Shown: piece by piece, positions 43,208-49,354 of the stretch
How positions within the stretch are numbered: position 1 is the first letter of the stretch
Layout of the letters: each line of letters opens with the position of its first letter
NCBI GenBank assembly: GCA_965229325.1
Contig: OZ245873.1
Span: forward strand, 914,716-978,715
DNA length: 64,000 bases
Direction of reading: 5' to 3'
Source: Kaistia sp.
Lineage (GTDB): Bacteria > Pseudomonadota > Alphaproteobacteria > Rhizobiales > Kaistiaceae
Program-made: the position numbers and the translations under genes
Notes under the pieces: generated by a model
What the model saw: only the letters and a program-made list of their open reading frames with translations
What the model was told of the DNA's origin: nothing
The model's database searches: none

Positions 43208-44286
43208 CCCCGTCCTCCCGCCGCGCGCCGCTGGCCCGCGCTGGCCAGCGCCTCGGCCACGAGCTGGGCCGGCGCCCAGCATCCGGCCTCACCCGGCGGT
43301 GGCCCCATCGCCGGCCGCCAGCGCGCCCAGTCCGGCCATGCCCGCTGGTCCGCGCCCTTTTCGCGCACCATCCGCCCGAAGATCTCGAGCGGCTTTCGCC
43401 AGTGCTCGAGGTCGGCTGTCCGCCAGTCGATCACCCTCCCCTCGCCAGCTGCCTTCTTCGCCGCGGGCGATGCCGGGCGAGTCCTTCGCTTGCGCTGGTC
43501 GAGGATCGCGCCCTCGAAATAGCGCAGCGATGTCGGCAGCTGGCCGTTCTGCCGCGCCAGCACGACGGCAACGCCGTCGCGGATCTCCGTTGCGGAGAGC
43601 CCGCCATCGAGCCACCCCCTCACCACGCCGAGATCGTCGCGATACCCGGCCGGTGCTCCGGCCCGCTCGCAGATCCACCGATGCAGGTCGACCGCCTCGT
43701 CGGTGTTCACTGCCTTCCGGGCACGATCCCTCTCCTCCCCGAAATCGACCAGAGCGGCAGCGGCAGCAGCCCCGGCCGTCTCGCTCGCCGGCGCCGGCGG
43801 TGCAGCTGCAGCTGCTGTCTGGATTCTGGCTTCTGGCTTCTGGGGGATAGGGTCCCTATCCTCCGACCTATCGGCCGCGGCAGGTTCGGCGGCCGGTGTC
43901 TCCGCCGAAGCGCCGATGGCGGGCTGATCCTTCTTCTTCCCCCAGCGCTTCGTGACCGCCTCGCGGCCGGCATCGCTCTGCCGCGCCTCCTCGAGGATCC
44001 GGCGGCTATAGATCCGCCCTTCATCGTCACGCGAGAACACCCCCGCGGTTTCGAGCTCGTCCAGGAGGCCGAGCAGCTCGTCCTCGCCGACGCCGCCGGC
44101 GACACGCATCAGCTGCGCCGTCGTCATCGGCCTTCCGTCGATCGCGAGATAGCCGGCCGGCTGCATCTCCTGCATGATGCAGACGCACCGCATCCAGAGC
44201 CCCTGCGCCGCGAGCGAGCAGAGGCCGAGCCGCGGATCCCCCAGCCAGTCCGTGCAGTAGAACTTGATCCAGACCTTGCCGCTCAT
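43204..44286 (-). CDS. Phage replication initiation protein
   Basis: WIKFYCTDWLGDPRLGLCSLAAQGLW N-terminal wHTH pattern, YSRRILEE, QKPEAR repeat-coded linker. Confidence 0.8.
   Translation of the reverse strand: MSGKVWIKFYCTDWLGDPRLGLCSLAAQGLWMRCVCIMQEMQPAGYLAIDGRPMTTAQLMRVAGGVGEDELLGLLDELETAGVFSRDDEGRIYSRRILEEARQSDAGREAVTKRWGKKKDQPAIGASAETPAAEPAAADRSEDRDPIPQKPEARIQTAAAAAPPAPASETAGAAAAAALVDFGEERDRARKAVNTDEAVDLHRWICERAGAPAGYRDDLGVVRGWLDGGLSATEIRDGVAVVLARQNGQLPTSLRYFEGAILDQRKRRTRPASPAAKKAAGEGRVIDWRTADLEHWRKPLEIFGRMVREKGADQRAWPDWARWRPAMGPPPGEAGCWAPAQLVAEALASAGQRRAAGGRG
43817..43860. repeat. Candidate origin: tandem heptamers + palindrome inside rep
   Basis: GTCTGGA/TTCTGGC/TTCTGGC/TTCTGGG (43817-43844) and GATAGGG-T-CCCTATC (43846-43860). 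Confidence 0.55.
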
Positions 44287-44546
44287 GGTGCGAGGCCCCT
44301 GCGTGGCGGCGGCGCCGCCAGTTCCATCAGGATCCGGCGAATGTCCTGCCGGGAGAGGTTGACCGCGGCCTCGACGGAGCGCGGCGTGCAGCAGAGCGGC
44401 TTCGAGACACGCCGCCCGCCCCGCTCGACGACCAGCTTCGGATGCCGACCGCCGGTGACGAGCGCGCAGGTCGCGCCCTGCGCGGCGCAGTCCCGGCGCG
44501 CCGCGGCGAAGATCAGGCGAATGTGCTTGGCGAGGCGTCCTGACAT
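44283..44546 (-). CDS. Small basic phage protein
   Basis: 87 aa, GGRHPKL..CTPRS motif; coupled to rep. Confidence 0.55.
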   Translation of the reverse strand: MSGRLAKHIRLIFAAARRDCAAQGATCALVTGGRHPKLVVERGGRRVSKPLCCTPRSVEAAVNLSRQDIRRILMELAAPPPRRGLAP

Positions 44547-44554
44547 GGTGGCCC

Positions 44555-45442
44555 CTATTTGCCGAACTGCGCCTGGATCGCCGGCTTCGCGCGCGCCACC
44601 GCCGTGATGAAGGCGCCGAGCGCGCGCTCGTTCGGCACGCGGTCCGGATTCACATAGACCTTGGCGACCCACGACAGCGTCGACTTGCCGGAGAACCAGC
44701 CCTGCAGCGATTGCGGATAGGTGCCGCTCGGAATCTTGGCATAGCTGTAGAGGGCCTTGCCCTGCGGATCGACGGCGTCGTCGAAATCGCGGTCGTTGAC
44801 GCCGACCAGCGCCAGGCCGTCGCCGAACTGCTCGTCCGCCTGGCGCACCAGCGTATTGCCGATCGCCGCCGGCTGCAGCAGGCAGGTCGTCTGGTTGGCG
44901 GCGACCGACGCAAGCGCGATGACGCCGCTTTCGGTCGTCACCGGAACCTCGCCATAGTCGGCATCCTCGGCGACGAAGTTCTGCCAGATCAGCCAGGCAC
45001 CCGAGCCCTGGTCACCGAGCGCGATCGACCAGCCGTTGCCCTTCGGATCCCCCTCGAGGTCGCCGATGTCGCCGACGCCGCTCTCCTTCGAGCAGAGGGC
45101 ATGCAGATATTCGCGGTGCAGATCCGCTATCGGCTTCAGCGTCGCGGCGGCGGCCGGGTTCTGCCGCTTGAGATAGGCCGCGCCGTCGGGCTGCCCGATC
45201 ATCGCATCGCAGCCCTCGCCGAGCACGGTGCGCTGGATGTTCCCCCAGGTCCCGCCCGTGTCGGCGACGACCTCGACGCGAATGAAGGGGTCGCCCTTCG
45301 CCATGCCGGCGATCATCTGGCCGGCCTGGTTGTAAGGGCCGCCGGCGGCGCCGGTGCAGAGATGGATGACAGCCGGCTCGGCGAGCGCGGTCGAGGAAGC
45401 GGCGACGAGCAGGCCGCAGGCGAGAATGGATCGCATGGTCAT
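44555..45442 (-). CDS. TAXI-family (TRAP-type) periplasmic solute-binding protein
   Basis: Signal peptide; TGAAGGPY, TGGTWGN, LHREYLH, LGDQGSGA motifs; no transporter membrane subunit nearby. Confidence 0.75.
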   Translation of the reverse strand: MTMRSILACGLLVAASSTALAEPAVIHLCTGAAGGPYNQAGQMIAGMAKGDPFIRVEVVADTGGTWGNIQRTVLGEGCDAMIGQPDGAAYLKRQNPAAAATLKPIADLHREYLHALCSKESGVGDIGDLEGDPKGNGWSIALGDQGSGAWLIWQNFVAEDADYGEVPVTTESGVIALASVAANQTTCLLQPAAIGNTLVRQADEQFGDGLALVGVNDRDFDDAVDPQGKALYSYAKIPSGTYPQSLQGWFSGKSTLSWVAKVYVNPDRVPNERALGAFITAVARAKPAIQAQFGK

Positions 45443-45585
45443 TGGCTCCGTGAGGATGAGGAGGGGTCGGGCGTGGACCGGCGGCGGCGCCATCGCTCGA
45501 ACCTGCGGCCGGCGACGAACACGACGGCGGACCAGCAGACACCGAGCGCCAGCTGCGGCAGGTTGGCGATGACGATCGCGGCCAT
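45439..45585 (-). CDS. Small single-TM protein coupled to the TAXI gene
   Basis: MAAIVIANLPQLALGVCWSAVVFVAGRRFERWRRRR (TM + positive-inside); ATGA overlap. Confidence 0.55.
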   Translation of the reverse strand: MAAIVIANLPQLALGVCWSAVVFVAGRRFERWRRRRSTPDPSSSSRSQ

Positions 45586-45589
45586 GGCT

Positions 45590-45799
45590 TCAGGTCGCCG
45601 ACGCGACGGGCGGCCGCGTCTGGATGCTCTCGATTTCGACGCGGGCCTCGTCGAACCACCGCGGCTCGGCGTCGCCCCGACGCTCGATCTGCACGCGCGA
45701 AGGGCCATGCAGATATTCCGCGCGCGCCGTGGCAACGCCGGCGAAACCGGAGACGCTGTCGCGAACGTCCTTCCCAAGGATGGCTTGCATGATCGTCAC
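45590..45799 (-). CDS. Small phage protein
   Basis: LGKDVRDSVSGFAGVATARAEYLHG..RVQI...WFDEAR pattern; AGGAG RBS. Confidence 0.7.
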   Translation of the reverse strand: MTIMQAILGKDVRDSVSGFAGVATARAEYLHGPSRVQIERRGDAEPRWFDEARVEIESIQTRPPVASAT

Positions 45800-45816
45800 G
45801 CTCCTGATCGGGCCTG

Positions 45817-45864
45817 ATCGCCCGGTGACGCGGCCCCGGCGGAGCCGCGCTGCCGGAAGGTCAG
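45817..45864. repeat. 48-bp direct repeat, copy 1
   Basis: ATCGCCCGGTGACGCGGCCCCGGCGGAGCCGCGCTGCCGGAAGGTCAG; identical to 46149-46196. Confidence 0.97.
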
Positions 45865-45868
45865 GGCA

Positions 45869-46126
45869 TCAGCGTGTGATGTGCTTGACCGCCCACATGA
45901 CCGACTCTTCGATCTTGGTGGCGGCGAGGCTCAGCTCGCGGGATCCGAACCTGTCGCCATCCGGATCCGTGCCGCCGATCTGGTGCAGAAGCTTGATCGC
46001 GTCGAGGCCGAGATCCTTCACGCTCTTCATCGCGTCCTTTTCGGCATCCGAAAGAACGCGGTAGTTGTGGCGCATCACGTTGTTGATAACGCGCGCGTCG
46101 GACGTGCTCGATACTTCGTCTGCCAT
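45869..46126 (-). CDS. Acb2/Tad1-like helical-hairpin protein (candidate anti-defence sponge)
   Basis: 85 aa; NYRVLSDAEK resembles Acb2 GYRDLSQEE, and SRELSLAATKIEESVMWA resembles Tad1 SRENACALTHVEEALMW (recalled sequences); AAAGGAG RBS. Confidence 0.7.
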   Translation of the reverse strand: MADEVSSTSDARVINNVMRHNYRVLSDAEKDAMKSVKDLGLDAIKLLHQIGGTDPDGDRFGSRELSLAATKIEESVMWAVKHITR

Positions 46127-46148
46127 TGTCGTCTCCTTTGGGCGCCCA

Positions 46149-46196
46149 ATCGCCCGGTGACGCGGCCCCGGCGGAGCCGCGCTGCCGGAAGGTCAG
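46149..46196. repeat. 48-bp direct repeat, copy 2
   Basis: Identical to 45817-45864; includes the TGA stop of the upstream gene. Confidence 0.97.
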
Positions 46197-46459
46197 AACG
46201 GGATTCCATCGTCGATCTCGGCGGGGCCGGGCCGATCGCGCATGGGGGAGGCCCGGTCGACGGGATCGCCGATGAAGCGGCGCTGCACCGGCGGCATCGG
46301 CAGCAGAAAGCTCTGCCGTGCTTCGAGCACGACGAATTCCTGCCCCGGATTGGCGCGCGCGAGCCGCTCGGCCTCGCGCTCGGCGATAGCAGCGCTGGGG
46401 TGCCGCACGGATGGAGCGCCGCCACCGGTCGCGTGAATCATCCAGAATTGATCTGCCAT
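46193..46459 (-). CDS. Small phage protein
   Basis: APSVRHPSAAIAEREAERLARANPGQEFVVLEA; ends DDGIPF. Confidence 0.7.
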   Translation of the reverse strand: MADQFWMIHATGGGAPSVRHPSAAIAEREAERLARANPGQEFVVLEARQSFLLPMPPVQRRFIGDPVDRASPMRDRPGPAEIDDGIPF

Positions 46460-46527
46460 GTCGGTTGTCCGGTCGGTTGGAGGGACGGCGGATGGTCAGC
46501 GCGTCGGCGCGTCTCTGGGCACGGAAG

Positions 46528-46579
46528 CGCACGAAATCGTGCGAATGTGCTTGCACACCGCACGAAGTCGTGCGATAGT
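46528..46579 (+). promoter_or_regulatory. hicAB sigma70 promoter with two palindromic operators
   Basis: TTGCAC(46551)-17 bp-GATAGT(46574); CGCACGA-NN-TCGTGCG at 46528-46543 and 46559-46574. Confidence 0.8.
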
Positions 46580-46604
46580 CCTTGCATTGAAACGGAGACG
46601 GGAG

Positions 46605-46799
46605 ATGACGCGAGACCAGCTCATTCAGGAGCTTCGGAAGCTGGCCCGGAAAGAGGGCAAGGACTTCGAAGTCTTCACGAACAAGGGCAAGGGGTCTCAC
46701 TACCGGGTGCGGTTCGGCGGCGCGATGACGACAGTCAAGGGCGGCGAAATGACCCCGGGTTATGTGAGGCTCATCAAGAAGCAGCTGGGGATCAACTGA
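46605..46799 (+). CDS. hicA: HicA-family toxin
   Basis: 64 aa, GKGSH motif, GGAG RBS. Confidence 0.88.
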   Translation: MTRDQLIQELRKLARKEGKDFEVFTNKGKGSHYRVRFGGAMTTVKGGEMTPGYVRLIKKQLGIN

Positions 46800-46862
46800 T
46801 CCCCAGCCCTTCCTCGCAAGGTCTCTCCCGTCGATGCGTTGGAGCCCAAGGAGGGGCAGAGC

Positions 46863-47297
46863 ATGGACTATATCTATCAGGCCCGGTTCGAGCCGGATCC
46901 GGACGGCGGCTTTCTCGTGACGTTCCCCGACGTCCCGGAGGCGATCACCCATGGCGCGACGATGGACGAAGCCAGGGCGAGCGCCGCCGAGGCGCTCGGC
47001 CTCGCGCTGCGCGGCATCGTCCAGGCCGGCGGCGCCGTCCCGCCGGCGCGCGCCTATCGCGGCGGCCGCGACACGGCGATCGCGGTCCCGGCCGACGACG
47101 CGCTGAAGCTCGCCGTCATCGAGGCCTTCCGTGCTGCAGGAATCACGAAGTCCGAACTCGCCCGCCGGCTCGGCAAGGGCGAGAACGAGGCGCGCCGGAT
47201 CCTCGACCCGGACTATCCCTCGAAGCTCGAGATGCTGTCGGCCGCGCTGGCCGCGCTCGGCCGCACGGTCGTGATCTCCGTCCGGGAGGCGGCATAG
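46863..47297 (+). CDS. hicB: HicB-family antitoxin
   Basis: GGFLVTFPDVPEAITHG.T.DEA; C-terminal HTH KSELARRLG...RRILDP. Confidence 0.92.
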   Translation: MDYIYQARFEPDPDGGFLVTFPDVPEAITHGATMDEARASAAEALGLALRGIVQAGGAVPPARAYRGGRDTAIAVPADDALKLAVIEAFRAAGITKSELARRLGKGENEARRILDPDYPSKLEMLSAALAALGRTVVISVREAA

Positions 47298-47300
47298 ATC

Positions 47301-48089
47301 TTGAGCGAACCCGCGAGGACTATATCGATCAAGACGTTCCGCCTCTGGGTCGCAGTGGTGGCTCTGATGCTTGCCCTTGTAGTGGCCGGATGGAAGTGGC
47401 CGACTTTCATCGAGCAAATCGATCGCTGGCAGACCCTGATAACAGGCATCCTCGCGCTCATTGTCGGGTTTCTGACGATCACGCGCATCGACCACCAGAT
47501 AGCAGAGACCCGCCTTGAGCAGGAACGCAGCCGGCGCGCAATGATCGCGGGCCAGAATCAGCCCGCGATTGAAAGGATCAATCTGATCGGTCTGGCTGTC
47601 GCCAGCTTTCGCGACCGGCTCAGATCGGTGGGCGACAATGCAACGTGGAAGCTCCGGGATACCGTGACCGAGGAGCTGCACCTTAATCGACAACGATACT
47701 TCGACCTCGAAGAGGTAGAGGCCTACTATCTGGCTCGATTTCGGGTGTTGGCACTTGCCGACCGATTCTTCAGCGACAGCGACCAAGAAACGACGCCGAA
47801 GGCCAAGCGGCACCTGGACGCGATCGAGGAGACCGCCATCCTCACGAGCCTGCTGCGCGACATGGCCCTGCTGCTCGGCGAGGGCTACACCCTGCGAGAG
47901 CTGAGCAAGCTCACGAGCCGTCAGATTGCCGAAGCTGCTCATGATATCCGACCGCCGCGTGAAAACTGGCTTCTTGCTTTGCGCCCTTCTCCGGGCGGAC
48001 CCTCTGCCGGCGCCTCCCAACCCCAGACCTCCCAGCCCGGCCGGGCCCGGCGGGCGTTGAGCTCGATCTTCGGCAGCGTCGGGAAATAG
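47301..48089 (+). CDS. Two-TM moron protein of unknown function
   Basis: Two N-terminal TM helices, WQTLITGILAL pattern; AT-richer; overlaps the MT-A70 3' end. Confidence 0.6.
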   Translation: MSEPARTISIKTFRLWVAVVALMLALVVAGWKWPTFIEQIDRWQTLITGILALIVGFLTITRIDHQIAETRLEQERSRRAMIAGQNQPAIERINLIGLAVASFRDRLRSVGDNATWKLRDTVTEELHLNRQRYFDLEEVEAYYLARFRVLALADRFFSDSDQETTPKAKRHLDAIEETAILTSLLRDMALLLGEGYTLRELSKLTSRQIAEAAHDIRPPRENWLLALRPSPGGPSAGASQPQTSQPGRARRALSSIFGSVGK

Positions 48090-49354
48090 GCCTCGATCAG
48101 CTCGGCGAAGATCTCGGGCTTCTCGGAGTGGCGGCCGACCGGCGCTTCGATGACGGACGGCCATTGGGTGCCCTGCGCCGGCGCCGGCGGCTCTCCGCGG
48201 GTCCCGTAGAGCAGGATCTCGTGCTTGTTGCGGTTGATGTGGCCGGTGCCGAGACGGTCCTTCAGCCAGATGAACTGCGTCTTGTAGGTAAAGCCCCAGC
48301 CCTTCATGACGTAGAGGGCGGACAGAAGCATCGGCGCCGTCGCCCAGAGGAACAGCGCGCAGTCCTTGGCCGCGATGTCGCCGACCGGGCGGAGCACGAT
48401 GTCGTTGAGGGGCGAGGTCGGATAGTGGTTGTCGGCCGAGCGGTCCATGCCCGTCTCGTCGCTCCACGTCTCAAACTGCCATTCCGGGTCGGCATAGATG
48501 ACGCCATAGCGCTTGTCGGGGAGCGCGCGCTGACGCTTGCCGAGTTCGCGCTCGCGCACCTCCCGCCGTTCCTTCTTGGCGTGCTGGTCCGCTGCGCGAA
48601 GGTCCTTCACGACCGATCGGAATGCCGAGACCGTGTCGCTGCTGCCGGCGATTGCCGCGATCACCGCCTTCTGTTCTTCCTTCGGCAGCGCCGCGACGGT
48701 TGCGGCCGCGGCGATCGATACGGTGCCTGCGCGCACCTGGTCGACCAGCTCGCGGCCGCCATGATCGCGCACCAGCTTCGCGCGCTCGACGGTGCGCTCC
48801 GGAACGCCGAGCGCCCTCGCCGCCTCCGCCGTCGACAGTGCGGACCCGGACGAGCTTATTCCGCCAATTGGCGGATTTTCCGGGGACTGCTCGCGCGGCC
48901 GGCCGCGGCCGCGGGTCGCGAGATCCGCCGCGATCAGCGCGCGCTGCGCATCGGTCAGATGGCGCCGATGCAGGTTCCGCGAGATCACGGTTGCAAGCGC
49001 ATCGACGCCGGGCACGCCGGCCACTGTGAAATCGTTCGGCAGATGCGCCAGCGCCTGCGGCAGCCGGCTCATTTCCTCGTCGGTCACCGCCCGGCCGGCC
49101 AGCGCCGCCCGAAGCGCCAGGAGGGGCGCTTCGATCGCAAGGCCGAGGATCGCATAGGCGGGCTCGATCCCAATCACCTGCAGGGCGCGGTACCGGTTGC
49201 GCCCGTCGAGGATACGGCCCTGGTGCAGGATGATCGGCTCCTGCTGGCCGTTGTCGCGGAGGTCCTCGATTAGCCCGACAAGCGCTTCGCCCGTCATCAG
49301 CGGAAAGATGTTCGCGAGGTCGTGGAAGGCCGCGCCTTCCGCCAGCATGGTCAT
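47939..49354 (-). CDS. ParB-N / MT-A70 fusion adenine methyltransferase
   Basis: N-terminal G..EPI..ILDGRNRYRA, SRNLHRRHL; C-terminal YGVIYADPEW, DCALFLW, HSEKP, IELNAR. Confidence 0.88.
   Translation of the reverse strand: MTMLAEGAAFHDLANIFPLMTGEALVGLIEDLRDNGQQEPIILHQGRILDGRNRYRALQVIGIEPAYAILGLAIEAPLLALRAALAGRAVTDEEMSRLPQALAHLPNDFTVAGVPGVDALATVISRNLHRRHLTDAQRALIAADLATRGRGRPREQSPENPPIGGISSSGSALSTAEAARALGVPERTVERAKLVRDHGGRELVDQVRAGTVSIAAAATVAALPKEEQKAVIAAIAGSSDTVSAFRSVVKDLRAADQHAKKERREVRERELGKRQRALPDKRYGVIYADPEWQFETWSDETGMDRSADNHYPTSPLNDIVLRPVGDIAAKDCALFLWATAPMLLSALYVMKGWGFTYKTQFIWLKDRLGTGHINRNKHEILLYGTRGEPPAPAQGTQWPSVIEAPVGRHSEKPEIFAELIEAYFPTLPKIELNARRARPGWEVWGWEAPAEGPPGEGRKARSQFSRGGRIS

Follow-up and report, generated by a model that had tools for sequence, protein, structure and literature searches.

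Why should a single small gene in a Kaistia prophage be framed by two identical copies of a 48-bp sequence, and does that sequence serve the exchange of genes, the transcript in which it lies, or both? The question bears on a wider one: the counter-defence genes of phages are replaced rapidly, and only for a few phage groups is it known which sequence features make this possible. In the window, by which we mean the whole 64,000-nucleotide stretch of a Kaistia genome (hereafter G000) that was analysed, the exact 48-mer CTGACCTTCCGGCAGCGCGGCTCCGCCGGGGCCGCGTCACCGGGCGAT, read on the minus (coding) strand, stands on both sides of one 85-aa open reading frame (Table 1), the product of which belongs to the Acb2/Tad1 family and is, judged from its sequence, a candidate cyclic-nucleotide sponge. 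Copy A lies upstream, at the end of gene U, and copy B lies downstream of Acb2, before gene X′. The earlier note had described identical 48-mers that bracket only the sponge gene and are each followed by a gene-specific ribosome-binding site, and both points are borne out: the matches are exact, this ORF is the sole gene between them, and a separate Shine–Dalgarno sequence and ATG come after each copy.

A comparable 48-bp match appeared in none of 100 dinucleotide-preserving shuffles of the window. A search that allowed up to three mismatches over a 44-nt core of the 48-mer returned two copies in the 4,996,853 bp of the genome, and the similarity between these two reaches 64 nt at 89% identity. 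An assembly artefact, which had been kept in view as an alternative when the repeats were first described, is excluded, because the identical locus with both copies is present in an independent ENA assembly (ERZ1793611 NODE_101, 156 kb) and the layout recurs in the related genome G007. A Logan contig ends 30 nt into copy A, as is expected of a k=31 assembly graph at a 48-nt repeat.

Table 1. Positions and properties of the repeat copies and genes of the variable slot (window coordinates unless a locus is named).
Feature	Coordinates	Strand	Details
NMT1/TAXI-like solute-binding protein (SBP)	44555..45493	−	88–91% nucleotide and 93–96% amino acid identity across all related prophages
Single-TM peptide (TM), 48 aa	45439..45585	−	Conserved start ATGGCCGCGATCGTCATCGCCAACCTGCCGCAGCTGG, the right anchor of the slot
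Gene X′, 66 aa	45590..45790 (ATG at 45790)	−	phrog_16275; ENA gene call also 66 aa
Repeat/hairpin copy B	45808..45866	−	Exact 48-mer at 45817–45864; R1 covariance model, 84.2 bits; fold, −35.9 kcal/mol; starts 4 nt past the Acb2 stop, upstream of the ribosome-binding site of X′
Acb2/Tad1-hairpin family cargo (Acb2), 85 aa	45869..46126	−	Candidate sponge; Pfam PF24729, 63.3 bits versus a cut-off of 27, E 2.4e-17
Repeat/hairpin copy A	46140..46198	−	Exact 48-mer at 46149–46196; R1 covariance model, 81.3 bits; sense fold, −30.1 kcal/mol; overlaps the final codons and the TGA of U and precedes the ribosome-binding site of Acb2
Gene U, 88 aa	46193..46459	−	phrog_17352; conserved, and anchors the slot on its left side; C terminus EIDDGIPF-TGA
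Gene Y (G007), 150 aa	L004 2507–2959		Behind the third repeat copy; in no other locus
Gene Z (G015), 75 aa	L009 1570–1797		Matches phrog_1761 and phrog_5120

The repeat turns out to be most of a larger structure, an imperfect stem-loop of about 56 nt and 21 bp (copy B; z −3.1 for the minimum free energy in Table 1). From base to tip, CCUGA pairs with UCAGG, a single C–G pair and a UCCGG/CCGGG helix follow, and a symmetric 2 × 2 CA/CA internal loop leads to a 10-bp GC-rich helix, GCGCGGCUCC/GGGGCCGCGU, closed by a loop of 3–4 nt. The exact 48-mer corresponds to the 5′ 48 nt of this stem-loop, the hairpin running about 8 nt beyond the repeat, and the divergence between the two G000 copies is limited to the final strand of the basal helix (AUCAGG versus AUUGGG). 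The G+C content of the element is 78–80%. The hairpin GCGGCTCC-GCC-GGGGCCGC that the earlier note had picked out is thus present, but as the tip of the 21-bp structure. Much the same applies to its reading of the leading CTGA as a stop codon: this is true at copy A, where CTGA closes a conserved gene terminus of the form ...IPF-TGA, but it is incidental to the element, CTGA being retained even where it does not serve as a stop, because CUGA pairs with UCAG in the basal helix.

Among related prophages the hairpin is better conserved than every flanking gene. With the loop excluded, the stems of copy B in G000, of the second and third copies in G007 and of the copies in G010, G016 and the metagenome contig L061 are 92–100% identical, whereas the flanks are 73–89% identical or unrelated. 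Variation is greatest in the loop (GCC, TCC, CAC, AGC, AGG and a shortened UUCG). Both G000 copies have the loop GCC and any other pair of copies differs there, which suggests recent gene conversion or recent acquisition in G000. In G015 the inner helix carries three double-sided compensatory changes and one extra pair on an unchanged outer sequence. Over the alignment 94% of cells pair, compared with 33–47% when the partners are slid by one to three columns. The covariation supports a paired structure, although it falls short of strong evidence, as all of the compensatory changes come from the single lineage of G015. Conserved G–U pairs make the fold of the sense strand the better one in 7 of 10 copies; of the remainder, two fold about equally well on both strands and the decayed first copy of G007 folds better on the antisense strand. 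This bias leans towards a structure that is formed in the transcript, without proving either the strand or the RNA level. The decayed copy, which stands before Acb2 in G007, has lost its outer helices while Acb2 has been kept, and an intact element is therefore not strictly needed in front of this gene.

How the element is placed among the genes can be seen from the related prophages. Written along the coding strand, with R for the element, the G000 locus reads U-R-Acb2-R-X′-TM-SBP (two copies), and G007 has three copies in the order U-R*-Acb2-R-X-R-Y-TM-SBP. The layout U-R-X′-TM-SBP of G010 and L061, with one copy and no Acb2, is that of an empty site; G016 (U-R-X-TM-SBP) likewise has one copy, followed by the other allele of the next gene, and in G015 (U-R-Z-TM-SBP) the single copy, with its compensated stem, precedes unrelated cargo. 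The earlier note had proposed looking in related prophages for the repeat with different genes or none, and that search found the element without Acb2 (G010, L061) and with other cargo (Z, Y, X or X′).

Relationships among these loci change along their length. U and Acb2 pair G000 with G007 (84% and 89% nucleotide identity, respectively), Acb2 being missing from G010, G016, G015 and L061. To the right of copy B, the next gene pairs G000 with G010 and L061, which share allele X′ (74%), and G007 with G016, which share allele X (89%), the two alleles being 44% identical in amino acid sequence; upstream of U, the end of the methylase gene again pairs G000 with G010 (83%) and G007 with G016 (91%). 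From these switches of grouping it follows that the U-R-Acb2 block lies in two different backgrounds and that its right-hand joint is the repeat. Wherever contexts differ, the homology starts with CTGACC and ends with GGCCC, in every comparison. No other stretch of the locus is as conserved as the element, which is also the sole sequence common to otherwise unrelated neighbours, and in these Kaistia prophages accessory genes are present, absent or replaced precisely at its edges. The layouts of the relatives and the switch of relationship at the repeat thus speak for the idea, put forward in the earlier note, that genes are gained and lost here as cassettes by recombination, as far as a comparison of six loci from one genus reaches; amplification, which that note also envisaged, was not seen.

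We consider it probable, at roughly 0.6, that the hairpin spacer is a promoter-less joint resembling the promoter-early stem-loops (PeSLs) of T4-type phages (Arbiol et al. 2010, PMC2839356; Comeau et al. 2014, PMC4122927), that is, a transcribed intercistronic stem-loop that is also a patch of homology for cassette exchange. The element has its home position directly 3′ of gene U, with further copies before successive small accessory genes, and the patches of 48–56 bp would act as crossover points for homologous recombination, either with co-resident or co-infecting relatives or between copies within one genome. Recombination of copy A with copy B in G000, for instance, would drop Acb2 and restore the U-R-X′ layout of G010. 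The hairpin itself may be kept for a cis-acting role in the transcript, most likely as an RNase III-type processing site or an exonuclease barrier; its 21 bp, 2 × 2 internal loop and variable terminal loop are features of RNase III substrates, a resemblance of structure only. Each cassette would thereby gain a standard, self-contained 5′ context, so that a gene could be swapped without upsetting the expression of its neighbours. Homologous recombination between repeats alone cannot build the first array: R-Y stands between X and TM in G007 and there is no R at that point in G016, which requires at least one illegitimate (non-homologous) join.

An alternative is a purely cis-acting RNA for processing, stability or translation, the position of which at mosaic joints would be incidental; cassettes would then have moved by illegitimate recombination, and the copies would be alike only through selection on the RNA sequence. 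Stems that are more conserved than the coding flanks, the compensatory changes in G015 and the sense-strand bias are all compatible with such an element, and a non-homologous join has in any case to be assumed for R-Y in G007. We nevertheless regard it as rather unlikely, given that the edges of homology are independent of context in every case and that the identity of the G000 copies extends to the loop, which is under no constraint; copying or conversion fits this better than independent selection. A transcriptional signal repeated in an early operon, whether an attenuator or terminator or an antitermination site of the nut/boxB or put kind, would account for a strong GC-rich hairpin between the cistrons of an early-type operon, but the sequence after the hairpin is CCCGAUCAGGAG or CGCCCAAAGGAG, with no U-tract and no terminator-like site at either copy, and the Rfam search assigned it to no family, its best matches being chance ones far below the gathering scores. 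Its stem of 21 bp also compares with one of 5 bp in boxB. As boxB is recognised through its loop, which is the most variable part of the Kaistia element, the suggestion of a boxB-like signal in the earlier note is disfavoured. PeSL stem-loops do terminate (PMC2839356), yet a transcriptional signal here is, taken together, distinctly unlikely.

Other readings concern the DNA. Promoterless ORFs that all point the same way and are bounded one by one, at precise edges, by imperfect hairpins with bulges and a variable terminal loop call to mind a dedicated, integron-like site of site-specific recombination, at which a phage or host recombinase would read the folded hairpin and move single-gene cassettes. 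This we hold to be extremely unlikely: no integron integrase was found, the best match to TIGR02249 reaching 80 bits where the cut-off is 265 and lying elsewhere in the genome; the attC cores RYYYAAC/GTTRRRY are absent, the repeat being without any GTT; and the element occupies one slot in one prophage lineage, with at most three copies per genome. A Pfam search for a phage recombinase among the neighbouring early ORFs gave no matches. It is very unlikely, too, that a dedicated cassette-exchange system directed by hairpins recognises the element, as a phage 'mini-integron' possibly tied to U; were that the case, anti-defence genes would be actively shuffled rather than passively recombined. 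A double-stranded DNA site, in the form of a long imperfect palindrome for a phage regulator or replication protein, would explain the palindromic sequence and an outer part that is conserved even where the inner stem of G015 has changed, but a 56-bp imperfect palindrome between every small gene would be an unusual operator layout, the conserved G–U positions are A–C mismatches on the other strand, and the DNA symmetry is imperfect, so that the prospect is remote. The last alternative is an RNA anti-CRISPR, a solitary mimic of a CRISPR repeat beside an anti-defence gene. The element is indeed a hairpin repeat unit adjoining such a gene, and solitary CRISPR-repeat units are known in phages (PMC10651486); with Cas1 absent from 21 of 22 Kaistia genomes, no CRISPR array in G000, no arrays matched by the covariance model in 401 genomes of the order and outer helices unlike those of CRISPR repeats, its likelihood is negligible. 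In a crude CRISPR-like scan of G000, the one regularly spaced repeat, outside the window at C1:3995600–3996000, is a Gly/Ser-rich low-complexity coding repeat, not an array. The element probably works through general homologous recombination rather than by an integron-type route.

The cargo of the slot is diverse. The 85-aa Acb2 protein returned no matches at E ≤ 0.01 in a sequence search of the PDB, and gene Y of G007 has neither a Pfam nor a PHROG match, whereas X, like X′, matches phrog_16275. Gene Z of G015 was considered as a divergent Acb2 and set aside, BLASTP similarity being absent and a weak shared match to phrog_1454 the sole link. By their position beside Acb2, genes X, X′, Y and Z are candidate counter-defence genes. 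A further Acb2 homologue, in another genus of the family (G026; L008 1240–1640) and 74–80% identical in nucleotide sequence over parts, adjoins a lysis-type gene and is flanked by two different terminator-like hairpins and no direct repeats, in a classic moron layout; Acb2 genes in general are therefore not framed by such repeats. On the other side of U, two near-identical 16-bp palindromes, CGCACGAyTTCGTGCG (window positions 46528–46543 and 46559–46574), lie in the divergent region between U on the minus strand and a HicA-like/HicB-like pair on the plus strand (about 46605–47297), and are likely to be operators of a divergent promoter. G007 is without the HicAB insert, and the methylase gene there runs straight into U.

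Gene U has a distinctive tail. U and all 13 collected homologues (window 46193–46459, minus strand; L004 1501–1767; L005, L006, L009, L055, L057, L058 and L077–L082) end in an acidic run followed by (I/L/V)(P/L)F and the stop, as in EIDDGIPF of U and DIDDDIPF of the G016 protein. The same motif forms the C-terminal tip of bacterial SSB (DDDIPF; PMC5872125), and one like it has been described in further prophage proteins (PMC13687109). A possible role for U is to hijack or block proteins that partner the SSB of the host. Its AF2 model (pLDDT 75) consists of a small β-α-β core and a disordered tail and had no match below E 0.7 in a Foldseek search against the PDB; with no such neighbour for the model, the idea that U binds the hairpin found no support. 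Prophages of Mizugakiibacter and Pseudoxanthomonas (Xanthomonadales; L057 and L058, 3190–3265) provide a parallel case, in which the TGA of the U homologue is directly followed by an imperfect hairpin that is also long (GCCTAAC...GTTAGGC), shows compensation in its inner pairs and is unrelated in sequence to the Kaistia element. The cargo behind it is a P-loop kinase-like gene (131 aa) in one and a methyltransferase-like gene (172 aa) in the other. The six other distant relatives that were examined showed no such long hairpin.

We searched whole genomes of 61 relatives, 87 members of the family and 401 members of the order. The element is confined to a small prophage lineage, represented by G000, G007, G010, G016, G015 (K. 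dalseonensis) and a remnant in G004, to which a metagenome scan added the contig L061 (two true loci and one chance match in that scan). In G004 (L007 1483–1620), the last 90 nt or so of a U-like gene and one copy of the hairpin with five mismatches sit amid unrelated chromosomal genes, in what looks like an old prophage relic. Outside the lineage, the R1 covariance model matched nothing beyond weak generic GC hairpins (25–32 bits) in the order genomes, and within the window it found nothing besides the two copies. No additional prophages of the lineage were retrieved with the neighbouring binding-protein gene as query, and the element was matched neither in an exact-pattern search of IMG/VR nor by blastn against cultured phages and plasmids. 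A dispersed palindrome of the REP/BIME type was considered and ruled out, with two copies in 5.0 Mb and a distribution confined to related prophages across the family and order genomes.

Within the scope covered so far, one genus and six loci, the prophages form a natural series at a single locus, from the empty site through the single and double cassette to alternative cargo, around one 56-nt hairpin. This makes the locus a small and tractable model of how a temperate phage can add or drop an anti-CBASS-type sponge while its operon stays intact, and the hairpin is a practical flag for unannotated accessory or anti-defence genes, such as X, X′, Y and Z, in these prophages.

Several known systems share parts of this picture. 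Under the modular theory of Susskind and Botstein, and in comparisons of the HK620 and HK97 type, boundary or 'linker' sequences mark the joints between lambdoid modules. Like these linkers, the Kaistia element is a short conserved sequence at gene boundaries that is the only homology between alternative modules and a likely place for crossovers, whereas it differs from them in being a long structured hairpin that occurs in tandem order in one operon and is more conserved than the genes. Integron attC sites share with it the imperfect hairpin, the variable terminal loop and the single promoterless ORFs in one orientation, but the Kaistia locus has no IntI, no R and L core sites and no attI/Pc platform. 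On the side of RNA, RNase III processing hairpins lie between the early genes of phage T7, where such sites flank the anti-restriction gene 0.3, and stabilising intercistronic hairpins are found in the Rhodobacter puf operon and, as REP, in malEFG. They share with the Kaistia element roughly two helical turns of imperfectly paired double-stranded RNA, interrupted by internal loops, between the cistrons of a phage early operon, and a loop the sequence of which is irrelevant; in sequence there is no similarity. The lambda-type nut sites have a short stem and a conserved loop that is read by protein, in contrast to a 21-bp stem with a loop that is its most variable part.

The PeSLs of T4-type phages are the closest system that has been described. 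Their layout is an upstream stop, a stem-loop with G–T pairs, a Shine–Dalgarno sequence and a downstream start (PMC2839356, Fig. 2), and they precede ORFans and bound indels (PMC2839356, PMC4122927). The same succession of stop, stem-loop, Shine–Dalgarno sequence and start is found in both systems, each time ahead of small accessory genes and within a plastic region, indels and replacements between relatives are bounded by the motif in both, and for both homologous recombination has been proposed as the means. The Kaistia element differs in that it has no terminator U-tract and no sigma-70 −35/−10 promoter (no promoter-like site was found in 44000–48500 of the window), it is GC-rich whereas PeSLs are AT-rich, and it consists of one 21-bp hairpin with a conserved sequence, present in one to three copies at one slot of a temperate alphaproteobacterial prophage, compared with about 50 PeSLs across a lytic genome. 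Since an early promoter defines the PeSL and is absent here, the element is best described as PeSL-like in its working rather than as a PeSL.
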